From NCBI GenBank assembly GCA_944323985.1, contig CALUUP010000001.1, forward strand, positions 37,029 through 101,028: a stretch of DNA of 64,000 nucleotides. Direction: 5' to 3'. The notes beneath the pieces are model-generated. The model saw only the letters and a list, made by a program, of their open reading frames with translations. It searched no databases and had not been told where the DNA came from. Source of the stretch: Candidatus Gastranaerophilales bacterium (GTDB lineage Bacteria; Cyanobacteriota; Vampirovibrionia; Gastranaerophilales; Gastranaerophilaceae). Position 1 is the stretch's first letter; each line of letters starts with the position of its first letter. Below, piece by piece: positions 3,553 through 16,508 of the stretch. The translations under genes were made by a program, and so were the position numbers.

Positions 3553-3581
3553 TTAAAACAAACAATTTTTGTTTGTTTTAA
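3553..3581. terminator. AT-rich hairpin, probable terminator
   Basis: ttaaaacaaacaa-ttt-ttgtttgttttaa inverted repeat after the TPR gene. Confidence 0.5.
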
Positions 3582-3616
3582 TATATATTTATAACTTTGT
3601 AAAGAGGAAATTTTAT

Positions 3617-5239
3617 ATGAAGTATTCAGAATATTCAGTGGTAATCATAGGAAGCGGAATTGCAGGTCTTTATGCTGCGTTGAAGATTGTAAAGCAAATA
3701 AATTTGCCGGAAGGTATTTTAATAATAACAAAATCAACATTAGGAGAAAGTAATTCTAAATATGCCCAAGGTGGAATAGTTGGAGTTGTTCATCAAAATA
3801 AGTGTGATAGTGTAGATTTGCATGTTAAAGATACATTAAAAGCCGGCGCTGGTTTATGTGATGAAAATTCTGTAAGGGGTATATCAGAGGCGTCTGATGA
3901 GGTGTTAAATGATTTAATTGAGACAGGAGTTAAATTTGATAAAAATAAATCAGGAGACTTAACATTTACATTGGAAGCCGCTCATAGTGTAAGGCGAATT
4001 TTACATTGTGGTGGGGATGCTACTGGTGCAGGGATTACAAAAGCATTGTGTGAAAAAGTATTAGAAAATCCAAATATTTCAGTACAAGAAAATACAATAG
4101 CTGTTGAATTATTAATAGATTCAGATAAGATATGTAAGGGTGTAATTGTATATAATGAATTAAGTGGTGAACATGAAATTGTATACACTTCAGCATTAGT
4201 ATTAGCAACAGGTGGTGTTGGTCAAGTTTATAAATATACAACAAATCCAATTTGTGCTACTGGTGATGGAGTAGCTTTAGCATATGATGCAGGAGCTATT
4301 ATACAAGATATGGAATTTATACAATTCCATCCAACAGCTTTAGCTTTATCCGTAAATGATAAAAATAGATTTCTAATTTCAGAAGCTGTTCGTGGAGAAG
4401 GTGCAAAACTTTTAGATAAAAATGGTATTGAATTTATGTCAAAATATCATGATAAAAAAGAATTAGCCCCTCGTGATATAGTAGCACGAGCAATATTTTC
4501 TGAAATGAAAAAGGAAAATATTAGCAGTGTTTATTTAAATGCTTCAATTATTGATTCTTCGAAGTTATTTAACAGATTTCCTACAATATCTAAAAAATGT
4601 ATAGAAAATGGTATTGATATATCAAAAGCGCTAATACCGGTTGCACCGGCTGCTCATTATACTATGGGTGGAGTTAAGTCAACTATAGAAGGTAGAACTT
4701 CAATTAGGGGTTTGTATGCAATAGGTGAAGTTGCTTCAACGGGTTTGCACGGAGCGAATCGATTAGCAAGTAATTCGTTATTAGAATGCGTTGTTTGTGC
4801 TTATCAGTTGGCAGATTTATTATCTTTTGCAAATTTATCAATACCTAAAAAAATTGATGATTCTATTCGAAAGATTATAGAAAAGTATTCAGCACCAATA
4901 AGTGAAGATGAGTATGATATTTTAACTCTAAAGAATAGTTTAAAGGATTTAATGTGGGATAATGTTGGAATAATTCGTTCAAAAGAATCTCTAGAAAAGG
5001 CAAAAAAAATTGTTGATAATTTAAAGAGTAAATTTACAAGAGATAGAAAATGTTTAAATATTGAAGAATATGAGTATAGAAATATGTTAACAGTATCTTC
5101 TATAATAATAGATAGTGCTTTAAATCGTAAGGAGTCTAGAGGTGCTCATTCGCGTGTTGATTATACACAAATGGATGCAGAAGTAAAACATACTGAAATA
5201 ATGAAGATTAATGAAAGGGAATTGATTAATGTTAAATAA
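3617..5239 (+). CDS. nadB: L-aspartate oxidase
   Basis: GSGIAG FAD motif, SKYAQGGI, EAAHSVRRILH, QFHPT, ISEAVRGEG, GLHGANRLASNSLLE; adjacent to nadC. Start set at the ATG after RBS GAGG. Confidence 0.95.
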   Translation: MKYSEYSVVIIGSGIAGLYAALKIVKQINLPEGILIITKSTLGESNSKYAQGGIVGVVHQNKCDSVDLHVKDTLKAGAGLCDENSVRGISEASDEVLNDLIETGVKFDKNKSGDLTFTLEAAHSVRRILHCGGDATGAGITKALCEKVLENPNISVQENTIAVELLIDSDKICKGVIVYNELSGEHEIVYTSALVLATGGVGQVYKYTTNPICATGDGVALAYDAGAIIQDMEFIQFHPTALALSVNDKNRFLISEAVRGEGAKLLDKNGIEFMSKYHDKKELAPRDIVARAIFSEMKKENISSVYLNASIIDSSKLFNRFPTISKKCIENGIDISKALIPVAPAAHYTMGGVKSTIEGRTSIRGLYAIGEVASTGLHGANRLASNSLLECVVCAYQLADLLSFANLSIPKKIDDSIRKIIEKYSAPISEDEYDILTLKNSLKDLMWDNVGIIRSKESLEKAKKIVDNLKSKFTRDRKCLNIEEYEYRNMLTVSSIIIDSALNRKESRGAHSRVDYTQMDAEVKHTEIMKINERELINVK

Positions 5240-6062
5240 TTTTTATATTGAAGATCATGTAAAAATGGCTTTGCAGGAAGATATTGGCTTTGGTGATATT
5301 ACAACTGATTATTTAACTAATGAAGATGATAATTTAAGTTGTGTTTTAAATACTAGAGTAGATGGGATTTTTTGTGGTAGAAATGTTTTTGAAATGGTTT
5401 TTAAAGTTTTATCACCAGAAGTAAAGATAAAATTTTATTTTAAAGATGGTGATGAAATAAAAAAAGGAGATAAAATAGCTGAAATAAATGGGCCAGCAAA
5501 GTATATATTGATGGGTGAAAGAACTGCTTTAAATTATATACAAAGGATGAGTGGTATAGCGACAGAAACAAATAAGTATCAAAAAGCTATTGGGAATTAT
5601 GCGTCAAAGATAGTAGATACAAGAAAGACGACTCCCGGTTTTAGGGCTTTTGAAAAATATTCAGTAAAAATCGGTGGTGGAAGTTTACATAGATTTAATT
5701 TATCAGATTGTGCAATGATAAAGGATAATCATATAAAATATGCAGGATCTTTGACAAATGCTGTAGAAATATTAAAAAAACATATTTCTCACGCTCATAA
5801 GATAGAAGTTGAGTGCGATACAATTGATCAAGTACGAGAAGCGATTGCTTGTGGTGTTGATATAATAATGCTTGATAATATGTCTTTAGATCAAATGAAA
5901 GAATGTGTGGATTTGATTTCAGGAAGAGCTATTGTCGAGGCTAGCGGAAATGTTAATTTAGATAGGATAAATCAAATTGCTTCAACCGGAGTTGATATAA
6001 TATCATCAAGTGCAATTGTTGCAAAGGCTCCAACTTTAGATTTAGGTCTTGATATTTTGTAA
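5229..6062 (+). CDS. nadC: Nicotinate-nucleotide pyrophosphorylase (carboxylating)
   Basis: EDIGFGDITT, GERTALN, DTRKTTPG, HRFNLSD..MIKDNH, IMLDNM. Confidence 0.95.
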   Translation: MLNNFYIEDHVKMALQEDIGFGDITTDYLTNEDDNLSCVLNTRVDGIFCGRNVFEMVFKVLSPEVKIKFYFKDGDEIKKGDKIAEINGPAKYILMGERTALNYIQRMSGIATETNKYQKAIGNYASKIVDTRKTTPGFRAFEKYSVKIGGGSLHRFNLSDCAMIKDNHIKYAGSLTNAVEILKKHISHAHKIEVECDTIDQVREAIACGVDIIMLDNMSLDQMKECVDLISGRAIVEASGNVNLDRINQIASTGVDIISSSAIVAKAPTLDLGLDIL

Positions 6063-6156: not shown

Positions 6157-8724
6157 ATGAGAATTTTAGAAGTAAGAGATGGTTTTATAAAGTTTGAAGC
6201 AGATGCTTATATACAATTATCATCTTTTGTAAGAATAGATGGTATAGAAAAAAAATATGTTGCTCAAGTTTTTCAGTTGAAAAAATCCGGAGAGTATCCG
6301 ATTGCTTATGCAAAGATATTGTTTTTGTATACGGATGATGAAGGTTTAAAAAATTATGATAAAACTTTGCCATCTAAAGATTCTGAAATATTGAATTTTG
6401 ATAATAAAATTTTATTAGATTCTATAAAATATGAAAATCCGATAATAGTAGGTAAAACAATTGGGACGGAATTAAATATTGTTGTTGATGAATCAATATT
6501 TAATAAAAAGACTTTTATAAGTACTGATTTTGAAGATGTTAATAATATAATTATAAGAAATTTAAGTAAGCAGTTTTTGAATATTAATAAGAAGATAATA
6601 ATTATTGATACATTAGGTTTAATAAGAGCAAAGAAATATTCAGCTGGTGTAGATTTTAAATTACCATTAGATACAAATTCCTTAAATTTTCTTTATAATG
6701 ATTGTCTTAATGATGTTACTGCAGATAGTAAATCTTTAATAATGGAAATATTTAAGGATTTAGCAGAGTATTCTAAAACAGTGCCATTTTTGCCATTTTC
6801 AACTTTAAAAAATATTGTAGATGAAATGGTTGATAAAGAGCATGTGTTTAAACTTTTGGTTTTAAAGAATAAGTTAGCGAAGTTTGATAAGTTGGGTTAT
6901 TTTGTAAAAAATCAAGTTGAAATCGAAAATTTTAATAAAATTTTAGATAATAATTGTGTAGTTTTAGATTTATCAAAATTAGAAGCTAATTTTCAGAATC
7001 AGTATATTGAATTTCTTTATAAAAAGTTTGAACAATTAGATGATATACAAGTATTTTTAGAGCTTTCGAATACTGTAAATAAGAAAAATTTACGAAATAT
7101 TTTATCAAATATAAATGTATCAACAACTTTTGTGTCTCATTCTAAGTTTAAATATTTAAATGATATTAAAAATCTTTTTGATAATTTTATCATTACTCCT
7201 TCTTTTGCTAATAATCAAATTTTTGAGATATATTCATCATTTTTAAAATCTATGACAAAAGAAATGTCTTTAGTAATAGGAGAAGGAACTAATTATATTC
7301 CGTTGGTTACTAAATTACAAAAAATTGATGAAGTAATCAATGTAAATAAGATAGAAAAAGTAGAAAAAATCGAAGATTCTTGTGTAACAGTCGAAGATGC
7401 AGATAACGAAGAAGATTGTAAAAAAACGCAAGAGTTGGATGAATTTAATCAAGAAGATGGTAAACAAGGAGAAATTTCAGATTTAGAAGATAAAGAAGAT
7501 GAAATTTTAAGTTATGTAGATGATCAAGTTGTAGAAAAAGTATCGGAAGAGGAATTACTTTCTACGATAGATGAAAAATCAAAGGATGTTATATCAAAAA
7601 TTGCTGCTGAAAATAATAATATATCAGATGTTAATTTGTTTGATGGCAACAGTGAAATAGATGGATTAGAGCAAAATTTTAATATTGATGATGTTGAAAA
7701 GAATGAAGGGATAACAATTCCAGAAAATGATAATGTAGAAGATAATGTAGAAGAAGGTTCTATAGAAGAAAATGATAATAATATTGTCGATTTAGGTGAC
7801 ATACAAGATTCTCAAAATGAAGAAGTTAGTGATTCTGAAGATGAAATTATATCTGAAGATTCTGAATGTATAAACTCAGTTGATGAAGCAGATGATAATT
7901 CAATAGCTTCTATTTCTGATATAGAAGATGAAAATGTAGTATATGATAATTTGTTAGAAAATCAAGATATTGATATAGGTTCTAATAATGAAGAATTAGA
8001 AGAATATGTTGGTAATGTAGTAGAAATAGATGATGAGTTGGATGTAGCTCCGATTACTGATGATATAGAAGAGATTAGTTCTGATAATGATTTAGAAATG
8101 AATTCAGAAGATGAGTTATCTGTAATGCCATTAGATAATGTTGATGAATATGGTGAGATTACAGAATTAAATCCAGAAGATATTGATGAAAATGATATAT
8201 TGGTAGATTTGTCAGATGAAACAAATCAAATTACAGAAGATTTAGATGAACAAATTGTAAAAGATGTTGATAAAGTTTTTACAACACGAAGAGATGATGA
8301 AATATCAGATACAGATTTGGATTTTATAGATGAATTAAATAGCGATGATATTTTGGAAGAAGTTTCAGCAGATGATGGTTTGTTAGAAAGTTTTTCACAG
8401 GATAAAATTGAAGATGAAGAGGGGATAATAGATAATTCTATTTCAGAAGAAGAACCACAAAATCAGTCAGAAGAAAATGAAATATTAGAAACAAAAAATT
8501 CAACGACTCCAATCGTTCCAATATACAGTGCAGAAATTCCACATGAAGATTTAGTAGAGAGTGATCCAATACAACAGGGAGATTCAGTAACGCATTCAAA
8601 ATATGGAGTTGGTGTTGTTGAAAAAATGATAAAGTATGGTAATAAAACTTTATATTCTATCAATTTTGATAATATAGGAAGACGTTTATTAGATCCGACA
8701 TTGACTGAAATAAAGAAAATTTAA
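6157..8724 (+). CDS. Hypothetical protein: degenerate HerA/DUF87-like N-terminal region, long acidic linker, C-terminal PcrA/UvrD-type tudor-like domain
   Basis: N-terminal barrel-like segment; KKIIIIDTLG resembles the HerA family V.IFD.hGE motif; D/E-rich region of about 400 aa; C-terminal GDSVTHSKYGVGVV...INFDNIGRRLL. Confidence 0.5.
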   Translation: MRILEVRDGFIKFEADAYIQLSSFVRIDGIEKKYVAQVFQLKKSGEYPIAYAKILFLYTDDEGLKNYDKTLPSKDSEILNFDNKILLDSIKYENPIIVGKTIGTELNIVVDESIFNKKTFISTDFEDVNNIIIRNLSKQFLNINKKIIIIDTLGLIRAKKYSAGVDFKLPLDTNSLNFLYNDCLNDVTADSKSLIMEIFKDLAEYSKTVPFLPFSTLKNIVDEMVDKEHVFKLLVLKNKLAKFDKLGYFVKNQVEIENFNKILDNNCVVLDLSKLEANFQNQYIEFLYKKFEQLDDIQVFLELSNTVNKKNLRNILSNINVSTTFVSHSKFKYLNDIKNLFDNFIITPSFANNQIFEIYSSFLKSMTKEMSLVIGEGTNYIPLVTKLQKIDEVINVNKIEKVEKIEDSCVTVEDADNEEDCKKTQELDEFNQEDGKQGEISDLEDKEDEILSYVDDQVVEKVSEEELLSTIDEKSKDVISKIAAENNNISDVNLFDGNSEIDGLEQNFNIDDVEKNEGITIPENDNVEDNVEEGSIEENDNNIVDLGDIQDSQNEEVSDSEDEIISEDSECINSVDEADDNSIASISDIEDENVVYDNLLENQDIDIGSNNEELEEYVGNVVEIDDELDVAPITDDIEEISSDNDLEMNSEDELSVMPLDNVDEYGEITELNPEDIDENDILVDLSDETNQITEDLDEQIVKDVDKVFTTRRDDEISDTDLDFIDELNSDDILEEVSADDGLLESFSQDKIEDEEGIIDNSISEEEPQNQSEENEILETKNSTTPIVPIYSAEIPHEDLVESDPIQQGDSVTHSKYGVGVVEKMIKYGNKTLYSINFDNIGRRLLDPTLTEIKKI

Positions 8725-11057: not shown

Positions 11058-11083
11058 AAAAAGGAGGCTTAAGCCTCCTTTTT
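11058..11083. terminator. Bidirectional terminator
   Basis: Palindrome aaaaaggaggcttaagcctccttttt between convergent genes. Confidence 0.8.
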
Positions 11084-12280
11084 TAGTGAATTTTCGTATC
11101 TTTTTTTAGTAAAATAATTGGTCATTCCTGCAACGAAAAATCCCATAATTCCAATAGAAAAGATATAAGGAAGTCCGGTAATTAGAACTTTTTGTTTTAC
11201 TAAAGATTTATATTCTTCTTGAACATTGGTTTTTCTTTTTTTAGCAAGCTTTTCTGCAATGTTACCTAAGTCATCAAACTTTGGAACATTTAAATCTTTA
11301 TCAATAGTGTCTTTACATTTACCTATTTTACGAAGGATTTTTTTGAAAGCGTGTTCTACGAATTCACTACCTGTAATTACATATAGTGCAACTAGCGGAA
11401 ATCTTGTTGCCGTTTCTTTTAGGTTTTCTTTTCCTCTATCAGCGGATGCTCCAAAATATCCGGCGCCGCCTACTAGTACACAAGTTGTTAATTGTCCTTT
11501 ACTTAGGCATAATTTCCCATTTTGATTATTAAAATCCATACATAGATATTTGTTTAAGAAATTTTTTGCTTTTTCATTCTTTTTAAATAATTTACTACCA
11601 GGAGCTACAATAAATTCAGAAATATTTTGCAAAAATTTTGAATTTTTTCCTTTTGTAGCAAGTAATGTAGCCAGTCCTATACAACCTGCATATAATCCTG
11701 CCGCCAATTTTATATGATTTTTGGCACTTTTTCTGACTTTTTCTTGATGAGCTTTATCTTCTTTATTATTTTCTAAAGATGCTATATTTTTAAAATCACT
11801 TTTGTTAAATATTTTTAAAGTCATTAAATTTTTGATGTAGTTTAGTGAAAATTCTGTAAGAGGGATTGCCATAGCAGCAAGTGCTATTGCAGCTTTTACG
11901 GGAAGTGTTTTTTTGTTGTTATTTTTAGTGATAGGATTATATTTTGCTTTTTCTATTAAATCAACTCCCTTTGTCGCAACTTCATTTTTTAAGTTGTTTG
12001 ATAAATTTTTAGAAAATATTTTTCTTGCAACTCTTTCTCCTAAAATTGTAGGCACAAAATAAATTAAAGCTTCTTCAGTTGTTTCTAAAAAGGTATTTTC
12101 GGTTAAATCGGCTAAACTTCTTGAAAAAACAACTTTTGGAATAAGACAAGTTGTAGCATCTTGTATGAATCTCGTTGTAGAAAGTCCGGATGCTTGTTCT
12201 TTATGTCTTACGAATTTAGCAGCAGGACGTAGAGATTTTGGTAATGTGTCTATTAATATTTTGTTATTGTTTGACGTCAT
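11069..12280 (-). CDS. Uncharacterised internally duplicated membrane protein (paralog 1 of 3), downstream of a Trp leader
   Basis: 403-aa ORF with RBS AAGGA; several hydrophobic helices; two related halves; similar to 14867-16312 and 37597-38826. Confidence 0.75.
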   Translation of the reverse strand: MTSNNNKILIDTLPKSLRPAAKFVRHKEQASGLSTTRFIQDATTCLIPKVVFSRSLADLTENTFLETTEEALIYFVPTILGERVARKIFSKNLSNNLKNEVATKGVDLIEKAKYNPITKNNNKKTLPVKAAIALAAMAIPLTEFSLNYIKNLMTLKIFNKSDFKNIASLENNKEDKAHQEKVRKSAKNHIKLAAGLYAGCIGLATLLATKGKNSKFLQNISEFIVAPGSKLFKKNEKAKNFLNKYLCMDFNNQNGKLCLSKGQLTTCVLVGGAGYFGASADRGKENLKETATRFPLVALYVITGSEFVEHAFKKILRKIGKCKDTIDKDLNVPKFDDLGNIAEKLAKKRKTNVQEEYKSLVKQKVLITGLPYIFSIGIMGFFVAGMTNYFTKKRYENSLKKEA

Positions 12281-12363
12281 AATTCTTTTCCTTTAAAACT
12301 TGTAAATTTAAAAACTTGCTTTTTCCAGAGCGTTTTTGTTTACAAATTTTAAAATATCCAAAT

Positions 12364-12448
12364 TTTAGAGTAACAAAACCGCTCGGTTTAACTACCCTAA
12401 ATAAAATCTAAAAGAAAGTTGCAAAATATAGGGTAGTTATACTAACCC
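12364..12448 (-). promoter_or_regulatory. Putative attenuator with alternative helices 1:2, 2:3 and 3:4
   Basis: Perfect 11-bp 2:3 pairing taactacccta (12439-12429) with tagggtagtta (12399-12389). Competing 3:4 hairpin tttagggtagttaaacc-gagc-ggttttgttactctaaa. The U-tract is imperfect. Confidence 0.6.
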
Positions 12449-12490
12449 ACGCCACCAATTTCTATTTAGATTTAAGCAAAAATTTTTCAT
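12437..12490 (-). CDS. Putative Trp leader peptide MKNFCLNLNRNWWRGLV
   Basis: Hand translation; tandem TGG TGG; RBS AAGGA 9 nt upstream; promoter and alternative helices flank it. Confidence 0.7.
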   Translation of the reverse strand: MKNFCLNLNRNWWRGLV

Positions 12491-12498
12491 AATTAAAA

Positions 12499-12528
12499 TT
12501 CCTTGTATCGATATATCGATACAAGGAA
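12499..12528. terminator. 30-bp perfect palindrome: udp terminator and/or operator over the Trp-leader transcription start
   Basis: ttccttgtatcgata|tatcgatacaaggaa directly after the udp stop. Confidence 0.55.
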
Positions 12529-12557
12529 AGTATAAATTAATTTATTATAAAAGTCAA
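12529..12557 (-). promoter_or_regulatory. Sigma70-type promoter for the Trp leader
   Basis: TTGACT-N17-TATACT; the -35 overlaps the udp stop codon. Confidence 0.7.
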
Positions 12558-13312
12558 GCCATTAGTAGTTTAATAGCTTCAACAGCAGTTTTTATAGCAG
12601 AGTTTGTATCATGAACTACAGGATTTTCCAAATTTTGTTTTTCTCTTTCTTGGTTTGCGACAACTAAAAAGATTGAACCTACTTGAACTTTTAAATAGCT
12701 CCCAACTATAAATAATGCCGCAGATTCCATTTCAGAAGCTAAACAACCTAATTTTAACCAAGCATTCCATTTGTTTTCAAGTTCATAATTCACAGGCATT
12801 AAACTAGGGCTGTGTTGACCATAAAACGAATCTTTACATTGAACAACTCCAACATGGTAATTTTGATTTAGTTTTTTAGCAGCATTAATTAAAGAAGTTA
12901 CAATTTCATAATCAGCTACGGCAGGGAATTCAATCGGAGCATATTCTTTTGTAGTTCCTTCCATTCTAATAGCACCTGTTGCTATTACTAAATCACCACT
13001 TTTTACGTTTAAATCCATTCCTCCGCAAGTCCCAACTCTTATAAATTTTTTTGCACCAACTTTTACTAATTCTTCTAATGCAATAGCAGCAGAAGGTCCC
13101 CCAATTCCTGTTGAAGTTACACTAACTTTAACTCCGTTTAAATATCCTGTGTAAGTTGTAAATTCTCTTCTGTCTGCAACAAGTTTTGCATCATCAAAAT
13201 ATGCAGCAATTTTTTCACATCTTTTAGGATCACCAGGAAGAATAACATATTCTCCAACATCACCTTCTTTTAGTCCGATATGATATTGTGTTCCATCTGT
13301 TGAATATTTCAT
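12554..13312 (-). CDS. udp: Uridine phosphorylase
   Basis: [45 protein letters not shown]. Start set at the ATG after RBS AAGGAG. Confidence 0.93.
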
Positions 13313-13369
13313 ATAAATCTCCTTTGTTGAAAAGTTTATTCTATCAATAATAACTTGTCGTGTCAATAA

Positions 13370-14866: not shown

Positions 14867-16312
14867 TTAGTTTGTCTTTTTTTTGTCTTTACTATAATCA
14901 TAAAGACCTGGGAAAGCATCAACTCCGGTAGTTTTTTTCGTTACATAATATTGTATTTTCGGAATAATTGTGGATAGGAAAATAGATGCAACAGCAAATC
15001 CTGCTGCAAAGTTAACACCACTTAAAATTAAGTTTCTTTTTTGAACTTTTTCAATTAATGCTTTATCAATTTTTCCATCTTTAGATTGTTTGCATAGATA
15101 TTCTACATATTTTATCATTTCATCTTTTAAGTTATAAAGGCTCTTATTAGATACATATTTATATTCATCTTTATTAGCATTTTGAGTAAAATCAGAGAAT
15201 ACTTTATCCAAAAGTTTAGGATTATTTATTTCTGCAATATTAAATGCATCAATTAATTGTTGTTTAGTTAACATTAAATCATCCATTCTTTTAGGCTGCA
15301 AATTCGCCATTTCTCTTGCTCTTTCAAGAATCTTAGAATCAGTTATATGTTTTTCTGCTTCTCTTAATTTGATGACTTCAAGAGGTTTTACTTTAAACAA
15401 TTTATCAAATGAGGTTTGCTTAGCTGTTTCAAATTTAATATCCTTAGGCAGTTCAACATTTTTACCTAGTACGGCATTTCTAAACTCTTCTACATTCATC
15501 TTATTATCTTTAATATAATCTAAAAGATGTTTATTTAATGTTTCAGCTGTTGCAGGATTAAGTCTTTTAGCATTTCCGCATTCAGCTAAATTAAGCAGAT
15601 TTCTAACATGTCCTTGTGCCCACATGTAGAAATAAATAGAGCCTATATCTCTGATTGCAATTTCTCTTCTTTCTTCTTTAGTACGAGCATTATACATTCT
15701 ACCACCGGCAATACCGGCATCACTAGATAATAATTTACCAGTGTTTGTATTTTCAATTGCATTTGTGAAAATATTTATTGCATTGATACCAGCTCCTTTA
15801 AAAGAAGGATTATGTTGAGCTTGGAGTTTTTCTAATTCATCTCGTCTTCCTTTAAGTCTTTTAGTAAGACCTTGGTTCAATTTAGGGACAACAAAACCAA
15901 TGAAAAGGTTGGTAATAATGACACTTGTAAGTACTTTTGCACCTTTTATAAGAGCTACTTGTTTAGCACTAAACCCTTTAGGTGCAATATTTTTCATAAA
16001 GTTTTCAAAAGGAGTTCTTAAAACTTTATCTGTTCCAACATCAAAATTCTTAGTAGTTTTTAGAATTTTATTAACTAGTTTATCCCCAAGAGCATTCATT
16101 GCACCGACTCCGCAAAGCCAAACAATTGATCCTGATGATTCTTCAATAAAACGTTCTCTTGCTTCATCAATACCGCCACGATGGAAAGCTTGGTAAGTTC
16201 TTCCTGCAACAACCGTAGCTTCTAAAGCTGCAATCGGTGCCATAGCATCTGCTTTAGTCATTGATGTTATTACTTTTGATAAAGTTACTTTATTACCTGA
16301 AATTGGATTCAA
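14867..16312 (-). CDS. Uncharacterised internally duplicated membrane protein (paralog 2 of 3)
   Basis: Same two-half architecture and C-terminal P.I.....KK.TG.DA.PG as 37597-38826. TTG start at 16312 follows RBS AAAGG; the ORF track starts at 16354. Confidence 0.72.
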   Translation of the reverse strand: MNPISGNKVTLSKVITSMTKADAMAPIAALEATVVAGRTYQAFHRGGIDEARERFIEESSGSIVWLCGVGAMNALGDKLVNKILKTTKNFDVGTDKVLRTPFENFMKNIAPKGFSAKQVALIKGAKVLTSVIITNLFIGFVVPKLNQGLTKRLKGRRDELEKLQAQHNPSFKGAGINAINIFTNAIENTNTGKLLSSDAGIAGGRMYNARTKEERREIAIRDIGSIYFYMWAQGHVRNLLNLAECGNAKRLNPATAETLNKHLLDYIKDNKMNVEEFRNAVLGKNVELPKDIKFETAKQTSFDKLFKVKPLEVIKLREAEKHITDSKILERAREMANLQPKRMDDLMLTKQQLIDAFNIAEINNPKLLDKVFSDFTQNANKDEYKYVSNKSLYNLKDEMIKYVEYLCKQSKDGKIDKALIEKVQKRNLILSGVNFAAGFAVASIFLSTIIPKIQYYVTKKTTGVDAFPGLYDYSKDKKKTN

Positions 16313-16508
16313 AATAAAACCTTTCTCTTTTACAGGAAGTTTAAAATTTGTCAAACTTATTTTTTGTTAATTTTAAAAAAAAATGTTACAAAAGTAAAAA
16401 AAACTTTACAAAATTTTAAAAATGGAAATCTCTACTTGTAATTAGATTATGTTTTATTTATGATTGTTTTAAATGTATACGTAGTCAAAATATAAAGGGA
16501 ATAGCAAA

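Follow-up and report, generated by a model that had tools for sequence, protein, structure and literature searches.

Transcription attenuation by leader peptides is known from the trpL leader of Escherichia coli (Rfam Trp_leader, RF00513), in which the position of a translating ribosome decides between alternative RNA helices. In 2010, demonstrations of such ribosome-mediated attenuation were stated to be limited to Proteobacteria, Actinobacteria and a small number of Firmicutes (PMC2965389). In Bacilli, the same work (Naville and Gautheret 2010, PMC2965389) described leaders with His codons ahead of hisS paralogues. The TnaC leader of the E. coli tryptophanase operon encodes a Trp-related peptide and controls non-biosynthetic genes including a Trp permease (PMC8429421). 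For the Trp genes of Firmicutes, the T-box and TRAP are the corresponding systems.

The DNA examined here was a 64-kb window (the whole stretch analysed) of a Candidatus Gastranaerophilales genome. All coordinates are window coordinates and all elements described lie on the minus strand. The original prediction for this DNA was a trpL-type leader made up of a promoter, a 17-codon ORF and three helices (1:2, 2:3 and 3:4), and all of these were found by reading the sequence at the positions claimed. The analysis confirmed that the Trp attenuator-like leader is real and far beyond chance, and its reading as a trpL-type leader was supported by sequence comparison. Overall, the leader is likely a ribosome-mediated, Trp-sensing leader-peptide attenuator of the downstream gene for a 403-aa protein. 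It would then be a new example of a mechanism already described, acting on a target of interest. The ORF with its tandem Trp codons and the alternative hairpins behind it were conserved in gut Melainabacteria, in about 60 species. The covariance model built for the leader matched all 59 orthologous loci searched (the window and 58 other loci) with one match per locus, and the encoded proteins at these loci shared 71-97% identity. A weak second match of the model in locus L032 was rejected as spurious since it lay in coding-like sequence without the tandem Trp codons (WW). An Rfam scan of the whole window at gathering thresholds produced neither Trp_leader nor any other family, and a scan of 12100-12800 at E ≤ 10 produced only chance-level matches, none of them with Trp_leader. 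The sequencing runs that contained this sequence were chicken and bird gut DNA metagenomes, while in one possible RNA run a small number of contigs covered the gene and no contig covered the leader.

Promoter, palindrome and leader reading frame

The promoter scan found a sigma-70-type promoter (12529..12557) with TTGACT (12557-12552), a 17-nt spacer and TATACT (12534-12529). A perfect 30-nt palindrome, TTCCTTGTATCGATATATCGATACAAGGAA (12499..12528), starts 1 nt after the -10 box, and its 3' arm contains the Shine-Dalgarno sequence AAGGA (12504-12500) of the leader ORF, 9 nt ahead of the ATG. The original prediction had correctly recognised AAGGA as a ribosome-binding site but had missed that it is the 3' arm of a sequence-conserved perfect palindrome. 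As RNA, the palindrome folded with -17.6 kcal/mol (z = -7.5). The 30-nt sequence was present as a single copy in the window, and no second copy was found in the window or in the flanks of the loci. Its 16-nt core, TATCGATATATCGATA, was exact in 24/63 loci, once in each and always at the same position. A recognisable and often imperfect copy was present in most leaders and absent in a few clades, and mismatches in a single arm were fixed in whole clades. A literature search for the palindrome sequence as a known operator gave no match. The palindrome is possibly an operator or a 5'-terminal stem-loop.

A different reading is that the palindrome is the intrinsic terminator of udp, that the promoter is a chance match and that the leader is the udp 3' UTR or a read-through product. 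The terminator scan did call the palindrome together with TTTTAATTAT as a terminator, and the -35 box shares bases with the udp stop codon. However, udp was the upstream gene in only 11/63 loci, yet all three elements (promoter, palindrome and leader) remain linked to the 403-aa gene, and the T-run after the palindrome was not conserved. In addition, a TTGACA-N17-TAnnnT promoter was found directly upstream of the leader in 58/58 orthologous loci and was kept whatever gene stands upstream. An origin of these elements in udp is thus scarcely credible, and the leader most likely forms one transcription unit with the downstream 403-aa gene and not with udp.

The leader ORF (12437..12490) consists of 17 codons and a stop codon, MKNFCLNLNRNWWRGLV*, and has a Shine-Dalgarno sequence and a start codon of its own. 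The tandem Trp codons TGG-TGG (12452..12457), which would be the regulatory codons, did not vary in any sequence of alignments A2 and A4 or in any of the 59 model matches, so that WW was kept in every orthologous leader that the model matched, as a leader of this type had been predicted to show. Only two small ORFs (10-40 aa) with WW were found in the 64-kb window including the leader ORF, and the other one starts at 4006 inside the ORF 3569-5239. An ORF of 14-18 codons was present in 57/58 upstream regions scanned; the exception was locus L019, whose leader lies at a greater distance from the gene. In 37/40 loci the ATG that comes first after the palindrome was in frame with TGGTGG. The distance between ATG and TGGTGG was 30, 33 or 36 nt, and indels in the leader came in threes and kept the frame. 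One clade had a TTG start paired with a strong GAGGAGG Shine-Dalgarno sequence.

These features suggest that the leader ORF is translated. Conservation of UGG alone is no proof of coding because UGG has no synonymous codon, and the LNxN codons, which make up much of the ORF, form one arm of a covarying helix. Both points would fit an untranslated region with UGGUGG as an RNA motif, in which the structured RNA would be a riboswitch or a leader that binds a protein. The frame kept through 3-nt indels with the first ATG in frame in 37/40 loci, the stronger Shine-Dalgarno sequence where the start is TTG, and the recurrence of WW or WWW ORFs in leaders of unrelated RNA sequence all speak against such an RNA, as does the absence of an Rfam match. 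A purely structural role is accordingly highly improbable, and a translated ORF is the preferred reading.

Alternative helices and the output step

The 250-nt leader folded with z = -6.2, and 0/200 shuffles folded as well. The ORF forms part of a long hairpin (12404..12473, -17.1 kcal/mol). In P0, the base of this hairpin, ORF codons (12473-12456) are paired to the spacer (12421-12404). Helix 1:2 (12450-12441 with 12437-12428) was present as originally described, but it is only the tip of this longer hairpin that takes in ORF codons, and the stop codon lies in the tip loop. Helix 2:3, at the antiterminator position, is a perfect 11-bp helix (12389..12439; 12439-12429 with 12399-12389) of -13.9 kcal/mol (z = -3.9). 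Helix 3:4, at the terminator position (12364..12401), pairs 12401-12392 with 12373-12364 and 12389-12385 with 12380-12376, with -13.5 kcal/mol (z = -3.7). A further helix, 4:5 (12328..12384), pairs GAGCGGTTTTGTT (12384-12372) with AACAAAAACGCTC (12340-12328), corresponds to inverted repeat I5 (-12.8 kcal/mol) and competes with 3:4 for segment 4. The alternative helices were energetically balanced, from -12.8 to -17.1 kcal/mol.

RNAalifold on the plain MAFFT alignment recovered only part of 3:4, because alternative structures compete, and covariation was tested instead with hand-specified helices and a covariance-model alignment. The register of 3:4 and P0 differs by 1 nt between species, and consensus registers were used for the pairing counts. 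P0 was 87% paired with compensatory changes in 6/11 pairs, helix 1:2 was 87% paired with compensatory changes at 2/7 pairs, and helix 3:4 was 94% paired with compensatory changes in 10/13 pairs. Taken together, 1:2 and 3:4 were 90% paired compared to 35-52% in slid controls, with 145 double-change cells compared to 44 in shuffles. Helix 2:3 was 84% paired in the MAFFT alignment and 80% in the model alignment, which was not fitted to 2:3, compared to 27-56% in slid controls; its double-change cells were 43 and 50 versus 19 and 27 in shuffles (0/500). Helix 4:5 was 91% paired in 52 species versus 40-60% in slid controls, with 10 double-change cells versus 2.5 in shuffles. Covariation was thus shown for 1:2, 2:3, 3:4 and 4:5, and since the first three all covary, segments 2 and 3 each have two partners.

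Folding with ribosome-occlusion constraints reproduced the predicted switch between 2:3 and 3:4. When the second TGG was masked by a ribosome, 2:3 was formed in the minimum-energy fold and 3:4 was lost, while with no ribosome or with the ribosome at the stop codon 1:2 and 3:4 were formed. The distance from the A site to the front edge of a ribosome is about 12 nt. With this footprint, the second TGG in the A site places the front edge at about 12442 and covers segment 1 (12450-12441), whereas the stop codon (12439-12437) in the A site places it at about 12427 and covers segment 2. The trpL-like geometry that had been proposed holds in these footprints, as segment 1 is covered in a stall at either TGG and segment 2 once the ribosome is at the stop codon.

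In the proposed mechanism, transcription would start at the TTGACT-N17-TATACT promoter and the 17-codon ORF would then be translated. When charged tRNA-Trp is scarce, the ribosome would stall with one of the two TGG codons in the A site, melt the ORF arm of the long hairpin and cover segment 1, so that segment 2 could pair with segment 3 in the 11-bp helix 2:3. With 2:3 formed, segment 4 would be barred from 3:4 and would pair with segment 5 in helix 4:5; a last helix further downstream would be prevented, the gene would be transcribed and its Shine-Dalgarno sequence would be open. When Trp is plentiful, the ribosome would reach the stop codon in the 1:2 loop and cover segment 2, and 3:4 would form. 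In species with a U-rich tail, 3:4 would terminate transcription. In the window genome, where the tail is poor, the block is probably a combination of weak termination and masking of part of the Shine-Dalgarno sequence by the last helix. The most likely outcome, judged from these sequence features, is that the downstream membrane protein is switched on when Trp is short.

The U-tract of 3:4 had been noted as imperfect, and the tail in the window, AAAATTTGG, was indeed poor, without a proper U-tract, and the terminator scan made no call. Among the 3:4 tails of 59 species, at least 5 U in 8 nt were found in 20, 4 U in 11 and at most 3 U in 28, the window being among the last. The last helix consists of 16 bp (12291..12354; 12354-12339 with 12306-12291; -16.1 kcal/mol, z = -3.8). 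Its 5' arm abuts segment 5, and its 3' arm takes in AAG, with which the Shine-Dalgarno sequence AAGGA (12293-12289) of the gene begins. Because 3:4 is without a proper U-tract, whether it would act by termination, by a downstream relay or by Shine-Dalgarno masking is a matter of inference, and because 4:5 also leads into the helix over part of the Shine-Dalgarno sequence, the output in the window genome may be partly translational.

An alternative would keep the same Trp-codon sensor but make translation initiation or mRNA stability the regulated step here, and not termination. In such a relay, 3:4 would only hold segment 4 while the last helix masks the Shine-Dalgarno sequence, and 2:3 would free segment 4 for 4:5, opening the Shine-Dalgarno sequence. 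The missing U-tract in the window and in 28/59 species, the covarying 4:5 pairing and the overlap of the last helix with the AAG of the Shine-Dalgarno sequence are consistent with it. In addition, the loci without the 3' domain (L020, L028, L034 and L005) all have U-rich tails, and in L016 and L057, which are without GGTTTTGT, other sequences appear by eye to recreate the pairing. However, the last helix can pair but showed no covariation across species, because its sequence is nearly invariant and it is beyond a covariation test. Equilibrium folds of 58 leaders in three ribosome states showed no consistent change in accessibility of the Shine-Dalgarno sequence, with a mean unpaired fraction of 0.43 when free compared to 0.39 when stalled, and in the stalled fold of the window 4:5 failed to displace the last helix. 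The distant homologues also appear to use plain terminators. Control of translation or stability in place of termination is a substantial possibility, though the less probable one, and weak termination at 3:4 combined with masking is the reading preferred for the window genome.

The putatively regulated protein family and its leaders

The regulated gene (11069..12280) encodes a 403-aa all-alpha protein with 3-5 hydrophobic helices and no Trp. As had been noted from the ORF, it is not a trp biosynthetic gene, and the protein matched no Pfam or NCBIfam family. Its AlphaFold2 model had a pLDDT of 91.5 and no Foldseek match in PDB or BFVD, and the PDB sequence search was also negative. The family was confined to Melainabacteria and all members were annotated as hypothetical. 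With regard to the Trp biosynthetic capacity of Gastranaerophilales, only Vampirovibrio chlorellavorus has been reported to make Trp and Met (PMC4451040). A neighbouring 495-aa protein was considered as a paralogue, which was unsupported (BLASTP E = 0.14, hhalign probability 3%). Trp residues were absent in all 120 close orthologues, while distant family members contained 0.9% Trp. Since the protein contains no Trp, it could be made during the Trp starvation that would induce it. A Trp-free target alone is weak evidence, because Trp-free proteins are not rare in the window genome (8/40 long ORFs).

Distant homologues L064 (49% identity), L059 (54%), L065 (46%) and L068 had unrelated leader RNAs that again encoded WW or WWW. 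In L064, L059 and L065, the 1:2, 2:3 and 3:4 segments and a hairpin with a U-rich tail were read by eye from the sequence, and of these the terminator scan called L064 only. At the level of sequence, equivalent WW leaders with terminator-like 3:4 hairpins thus appear as an independent replication in distant homologues. Among the distant homologues, 4/4 of those that were free of Trp and had a readable upstream region had WW leaders, while 6/6 of those containing Trp were without a WW leader and 5/6 had Met-rich leaders.

The same leaders bear on the possibility that the peptide is a TnaC-like arrest peptide, in which free Trp, and not its lack, would cause the nascent chain to stall the ribosome, and excess Trp would induce the gene. 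A short peptide, a conserved Trp near its C-terminus and a target that is not biosynthetic would fit such an arrangement. The TnaC motif is W12-D16-P24, that is W-x3-D-x7-P at the C-terminus. This pattern was absent from the leaders compared, in which only WW was common: the C-terminal residues varied (RGLV, RS, RWSV, RLL.., WQV), and beyond WW nothing was conserved in the distant leaders (WWRGLV, WWRS, WWRLL.., WWSLS.., WWWQV). The three-helix switch also places the stall site so that segment 2 is uncovered, the target protein is strictly Trp-free, and the paralogues with Met codon runs fit codon-level starvation sensing. Sensing of free Trp by an arrest peptide is therefore very improbable, and starvation sensing at the Trp codons is preferred.

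The 403-aa family may, tentatively and with somewhat less than even confidence, represent membrane proteins specific to Melainabacteria that together respond to starvation for single amino acids. Each paralogue would be under a leader rich in one amino acid and itself depleted of it, the leader peptides having WW or WWW in one subfamily and, in another, 6 to 10 Met in a run, in some cases with Cys. Such proteins would be either an unrecognised uptake or scavenging class or amino-acid-sparing isoforms of an abundant envelope protein. If this reading is true, the Met-rich leaders would to our knowledge be the first methionine leader-peptide attenuators. Through the leader, an orphan protein family whose fold is confidently predicted but has no match becomes accessible to functional study. 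It suggests a protein wanted specifically when Trp is short (Met for the paralogues), which makes uptake or scavenging directly testable for uncultured gut bacteria through heterologous expression.

Comparison with described systems

The leader would extend classical trpL-type attenuation to the non-photosynthetic sister lineage of Cyanobacteria. As in E. coli trpL, the leader ORF is short and has a pair of neighbouring Trp codons close to its end, segments 1 to 4 form helices 1:2, 2:3 and 3:4 that exclude one another, and the position of the stop codon lets the terminating ribosome cover segment 2. In E. coli the TrpR operator adds promoter control as a second layer, and the palindrome may be its counterpart here. 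In contrast to trpL, no sequence or model similarity was found and the phylum is a different one (Melainabacteria), the gene controlled is not a trp biosynthetic gene, 1:2 is extended by ORF codons that pair with the spacer, and 3:4 is without a U-tract in the window genome and is followed by an extra domain of 4:5 and the last helix. This domain with its relay and the operator-like palindrome suggest a layered design of promoter control, attenuation and Shine-Dalgarno masking.

Relative to T-box and TRAP regulation, the signal (supply of Trp or charged tRNA-Trp) and the logic of competing terminator and antiterminator are the same, but the sensor in those systems is uncharged tRNA or the TRAP protein and not a translating ribosome. 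Neither the T-box nor any other Rfam family was matched, and by reading of the leader sequence a run of (G/U)AG repeats was not present. TnaC likewise has a Trp-related leader peptide ahead of non-biosynthetic genes, but it senses free Trp via the nascent chain and acts through Rho, whereas the leader described here has tandem regulatory codons and alternative hairpins, with no conserved peptide motif beyond WW. Finally, the His-codon leaders of Bacilli are similar in that a codon-specific leader peptide controls a non-biosynthetic gene and in that they were found by comparative genomics outside Proteobacteria. Their target, a tRNA synthetase, is linked to the amino acid, whereas the target here belongs to a family without known function.

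Leader elements, conservation and ownership

Every element that the original prediction had read in the 273-nt gap between the uridine phosphorylase gene (udp; 12554-13366, minus strand, TIGR01718) and the 403-aa ORF (11069-12280, minus strand) was present on the minus strand of this ~30% G+C window. Sequence reading showed a promoter TTGACT-N17-TATACT (12557-12529, also called by the scan), the motif AAGGA (12504-12500), a leader ORF MKNFCLNLNRNWWRGLV (12490-12437) with TGG-TGG at 12457-12452 and three overlapping helices (1:2, 2:3 and 3:4). The promoter-leader unit is assigned to the 403-aa gene because a TTGACA-N17-TAnnnT promoter was found in all 58 loci, and only 11 of 63 loci have udp on the upstream side.

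A scan of the genome collection with the 403-aa protein produced 63 loci, one per species, mostly from Candidatus Gastranaerophilales, Melainabacteria or Vampirovibrio and the remainder from gut or rumen bins; the window DNA itself was found in chicken and bird gut metagenomes. An ORF of 14-18 codons ending in WW(R/C/Q) and 1-3 more codons (GLV, RSV, WSV, S and others) was present in 57 of 58 upstream regions. In the sole exception (L019:2483-3003) the leader lay ~400 nt upstream of the gene, ahead of a G+C-rich insertion of ~320 nt between helix 3:4 and the conserved 3' domain. The tandem Trp codons, whose conservation had been proposed as a check, were invariant as TGGTGG in the aligned orthologous leaders. 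In 37 of 40 loci (one third by chance), the first ATG after the palindrome described below shared the frame of TGGTGG. The distance from ATG to TGGTGG was 30, 33 or 36 nt, and one clade without ATG had GAGGAGG followed by an in-frame TTG. Frame-keeping, spacing in 3-nt steps and this alternative start are, as read from the sequences, what a translated ORF would show, and not what an RNA motif would.

The AAGGA had been taken for a ribosome-binding site; it is present but belongs to a perfect palindrome of 30 nt, TTCCTTGTATCGATATATCGATACAAGGAA (12528-12499, minus strand), as its 3' arm. The palindrome begins 1 nt past the -10 box. Its core of 16 nt, TATCGATATATCGATA, was exact in 24 of 63 loci, as a single copy at this position, and a recognisable copy was present in most leaders. 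No second copy was found in the window or the locus flanks. Mismatches in a single arm were uncompensated and fixed across whole clades. The likelier reading of the palindrome is a candidate operator that overlaps the start site and would bind a putative repressor; the less likely one is a stem in the RNA, which would act as a 5' stabilising stem-loop. In a few clades (L016, L057, L040, L056) the palindrome is missing from the region ~40 nt upstream of the leader ATG, and no more than 6-11 nt separate the -10 box from that ATG, so the mRNA from which the peptide is translated there may be leaderless or nearly so.

Alternative pairing and ribosome geometry

The 250-nt leader folded with a z-score of -6.2 against shuffles. 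Individual folds of the window copy gave comparable stabilities of -12.8 to -17.1 kcal/mol: -17.1 for the long hairpin containing 1:2, -13.9 for helix 2:3 (perfect, 11 bp), -13.5 for 3:4, -12.8 for 4:5 and -16.1 kcal/mol for the last helix. Helix 1:2 exists as proposed, although not as a free-standing hairpin: it caps a longer hairpin of 70 nt. In the base of that hairpin (P0), codons 6-12 of the ORF are paired with the spacer that separates segments 2 and 3. This pairing accounts for the conserved 'LNxN' residues of the ORF.

The front edge of a ribosome lies ~12 nt from its A site. Footprints computed from this figure and the coordinates showed that a stall at either TGG covers segment 1 (12450-12442), in agreement with the predicted trpL arrangement, and that one which has reached the stop codon (12439-12437, inside the 1:2 loop) covers segment 2 (12439-12427). 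The proposed occlusion folds behaved likewise: masking a ribosome footprint at the second TGG gave a minimum-energy fold that gained 2:3 and lost 3:4, and with the ribosome absent or at the stop codon the fold contained 1:2 and 3:4.

A covariance model (R1) built from 46 leaders matched once in the window (12356-12481) and once in each of 58 orthologous loci. On the R1 alignment, which was fitted to the ribosome-free structure (P0, the 1:2 tip and 3:4) and is biased in its favour, this structure was 90% paired against 35-52% in slid controls; 18 of its 31 pairs showed compensatory changes, and double-change cells numbered 145, compared with 44 in shuffles (0/500). Helix 2:3 is the fairer test because it lies outside R1; it was 84% paired in a plain MAFFT alignment and 80% in the model alignment (slid controls 27-56%), with 43 and 50 double-change cells, respectively, against 19 and 27 in shuffles (0/500). 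As 1:2, 3:4 and 2:3 all covary, segments 2 and 3 each have two covarying partners, as a switch would predict.

The 3' domain and the output step

In the window, helix 3:4 is followed by AAAATTTGG (minus strand). Among 59 species, the 8-nt tail had at least five U in 20, four in 11 and at most three in 28, and it was U-rich in all loci without the downstream domain. This 3' domain (..TTGTAAACAAAACC..GCAATTTT..GTTTcACAAGTTTTAGGA; 12282-12363, minus strand; columns 70-156 of the leader alignment A7) lies between 3:4 and the Shine-Dalgarno of the gene. It comprises ~70 nt that are highly conserved and nearly invariant in A7, and is kept even in L019, where the insertion parts it from the attenuator. 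Judged from the alignment, its conservation exceeds what base pairing alone would need.

Segment 4 (GGTTTTGT) was 91% paired with ACAAAACC, and double-change cells numbered 10 where shuffles gave 2.5; by eye, other sequences appear to restore this pairing in L016 and L057. The adjoining TTGTAAAC is able to pair with GTTTcACAAG just before TTTTAGGA, forming in the window a 16-bp last helix that overlaps the Shine-Dalgarno; since this helix is invariant, covariation speaks neither for nor against it. These pairings are most economically read as a relay, with 1:2, 3:4 and the last helix in the off state and 2:3 and 4:5 in the on state. The output would be termination at 3:4 in some species; in others, including the window genome, it would be masking of the Shine-Dalgarno or weak termination at a second site.

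Regulated proteins, leader types and known systems

The 403-aa gene is monocistronic; downstream of it lies a rubrerythrin gene in convergent orientation. Its protein has hundreds of homologues. The family forms 195 clusters at 50% identity, and every member that could be traced is from Melainabacteria and annotated as hypothetical. No Pfam or NCBIfam family and no sequence relative among solved structures were found. The AlphaFold2 model was confident (pLDDT 91.5, pTM 0.88) and all-alpha, and had no Foldseek match in PDB or BFVD (best E-value ~0.3, TM-scores <0.3), and family-averaged hydropathy showed 3-5 hydrophobic helices. A 495-aa ORF two genes upstream (14867-16354, minus strand), also without a Pfam or NCBIfam family, showed no detectable relationship to the 403-aa protein (BLASTP E = 0.14, hhalign probability 3%).

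Trp was absent from 120 of 120 close orthologues of the window protein, while distant family members average 0.9%. Of the 40 ORFs in the window that reach 200 aa, 8 were Trp-free. Among the window's ORFs, one of 855 aa (6157-8724, plus strand), just downstream of nadB-like (3569-5239) and nadC-like (5229-6062) genes, has no Pfam family and no Trp, where ~6 would be expected at the window's frequency of 0.68%.

Distant homologues (43-54% identity) were located on contigs. All four Trp-free ones with a readable upstream region had a leader RNA of unrelated sequence, again with adjacent Trp codons; segments in the first three loci were assigned by eye, and only the L064 terminator was called by the scan. 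L064 (..NLSWWRLL..) had segments 1 CCTGTTAA, 2 TTAACAGG, 3 CCTGTTAA and 4 AACAGGG, then CTTTGTTTGTTTT; L059 (..SWWRL*) had CCTGTA, TACAGG, CCTGTAC and GTATAGG, then TTTTGTAGTTTT; L065 (MPNKNLNTQSWWSLS..) had a hairpin ACCTG/CAGGT, then TCTTTAGTG; and L068 (MIKSMQNRNWWWQV*) had only 62 nt to the gene start. In two further loci, L067:1-87 and L075:1-58 (proteins P0131, Trp-free, and P0136), a hairpin and T-run lie 20-40 nt before the gene, and the contig breaks off ahead of any readable leader ORF.

The WW leader was absent from all six Trp-containing homologues read. Five of these had instead a Met-rich leader (L069:1018-1200, L071:241-413, L072:49-218, L073:829-1000 and L074:849-1000), each followed directly before the gene by a strong GC-rich hairpin and T-run, as read by eye and with simple folds. 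The peptides (MKNNQVITTAMMMCSM..RM*, MTNSKQNNTMMNMMMSMYMSM..RM*, MIKNLMAMMMCMMCM.., MLSINAQVMMNMMMQMQ..RM* and ..MSDMMMDMQMMMCM..RM*) are encoded with 6 to 10 Met codons in a run, some of them with Cys as well, and four of five end in ..RM*. They look like leader-peptide attenuators for methionine (sulfur amino acids); to our knowledge this type is not known from the literature. Four of the five paralogues had little internal Met, with 2-5 residues (about 0.4-1.1%) where the family mean is 2.05%; the remaining one, P0128, had six. Several of the paralogues were low in Cys. Leader type thus matches the composition of the regulated protein, Trp-free with WW and, in four of five cases, Met-poor with Met, which argues for sensing of starvation rather than of excess. 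On the basis of this regulation, the 403-aa protein may act specifically when one amino acid runs short.

According to a 2010 survey (PMC2965389), Proteobacteria and Actinobacteria were the only groups in which leader-peptide systems had been shown; the survey itself added Bacilli. No report of leader-peptide attenuation in Melainabacteria was found in the literature search, and the Rfam Trp_leader model did not match this leader. A TnaC-type arrest peptide was ruled out by the pattern of peptide conservation. In mechanism and ribosome geometry, as deduced from sequence and folds, the arrangement is the same as that of trpL, and the leader is mechanistically a predicted trpL-type attenuator.
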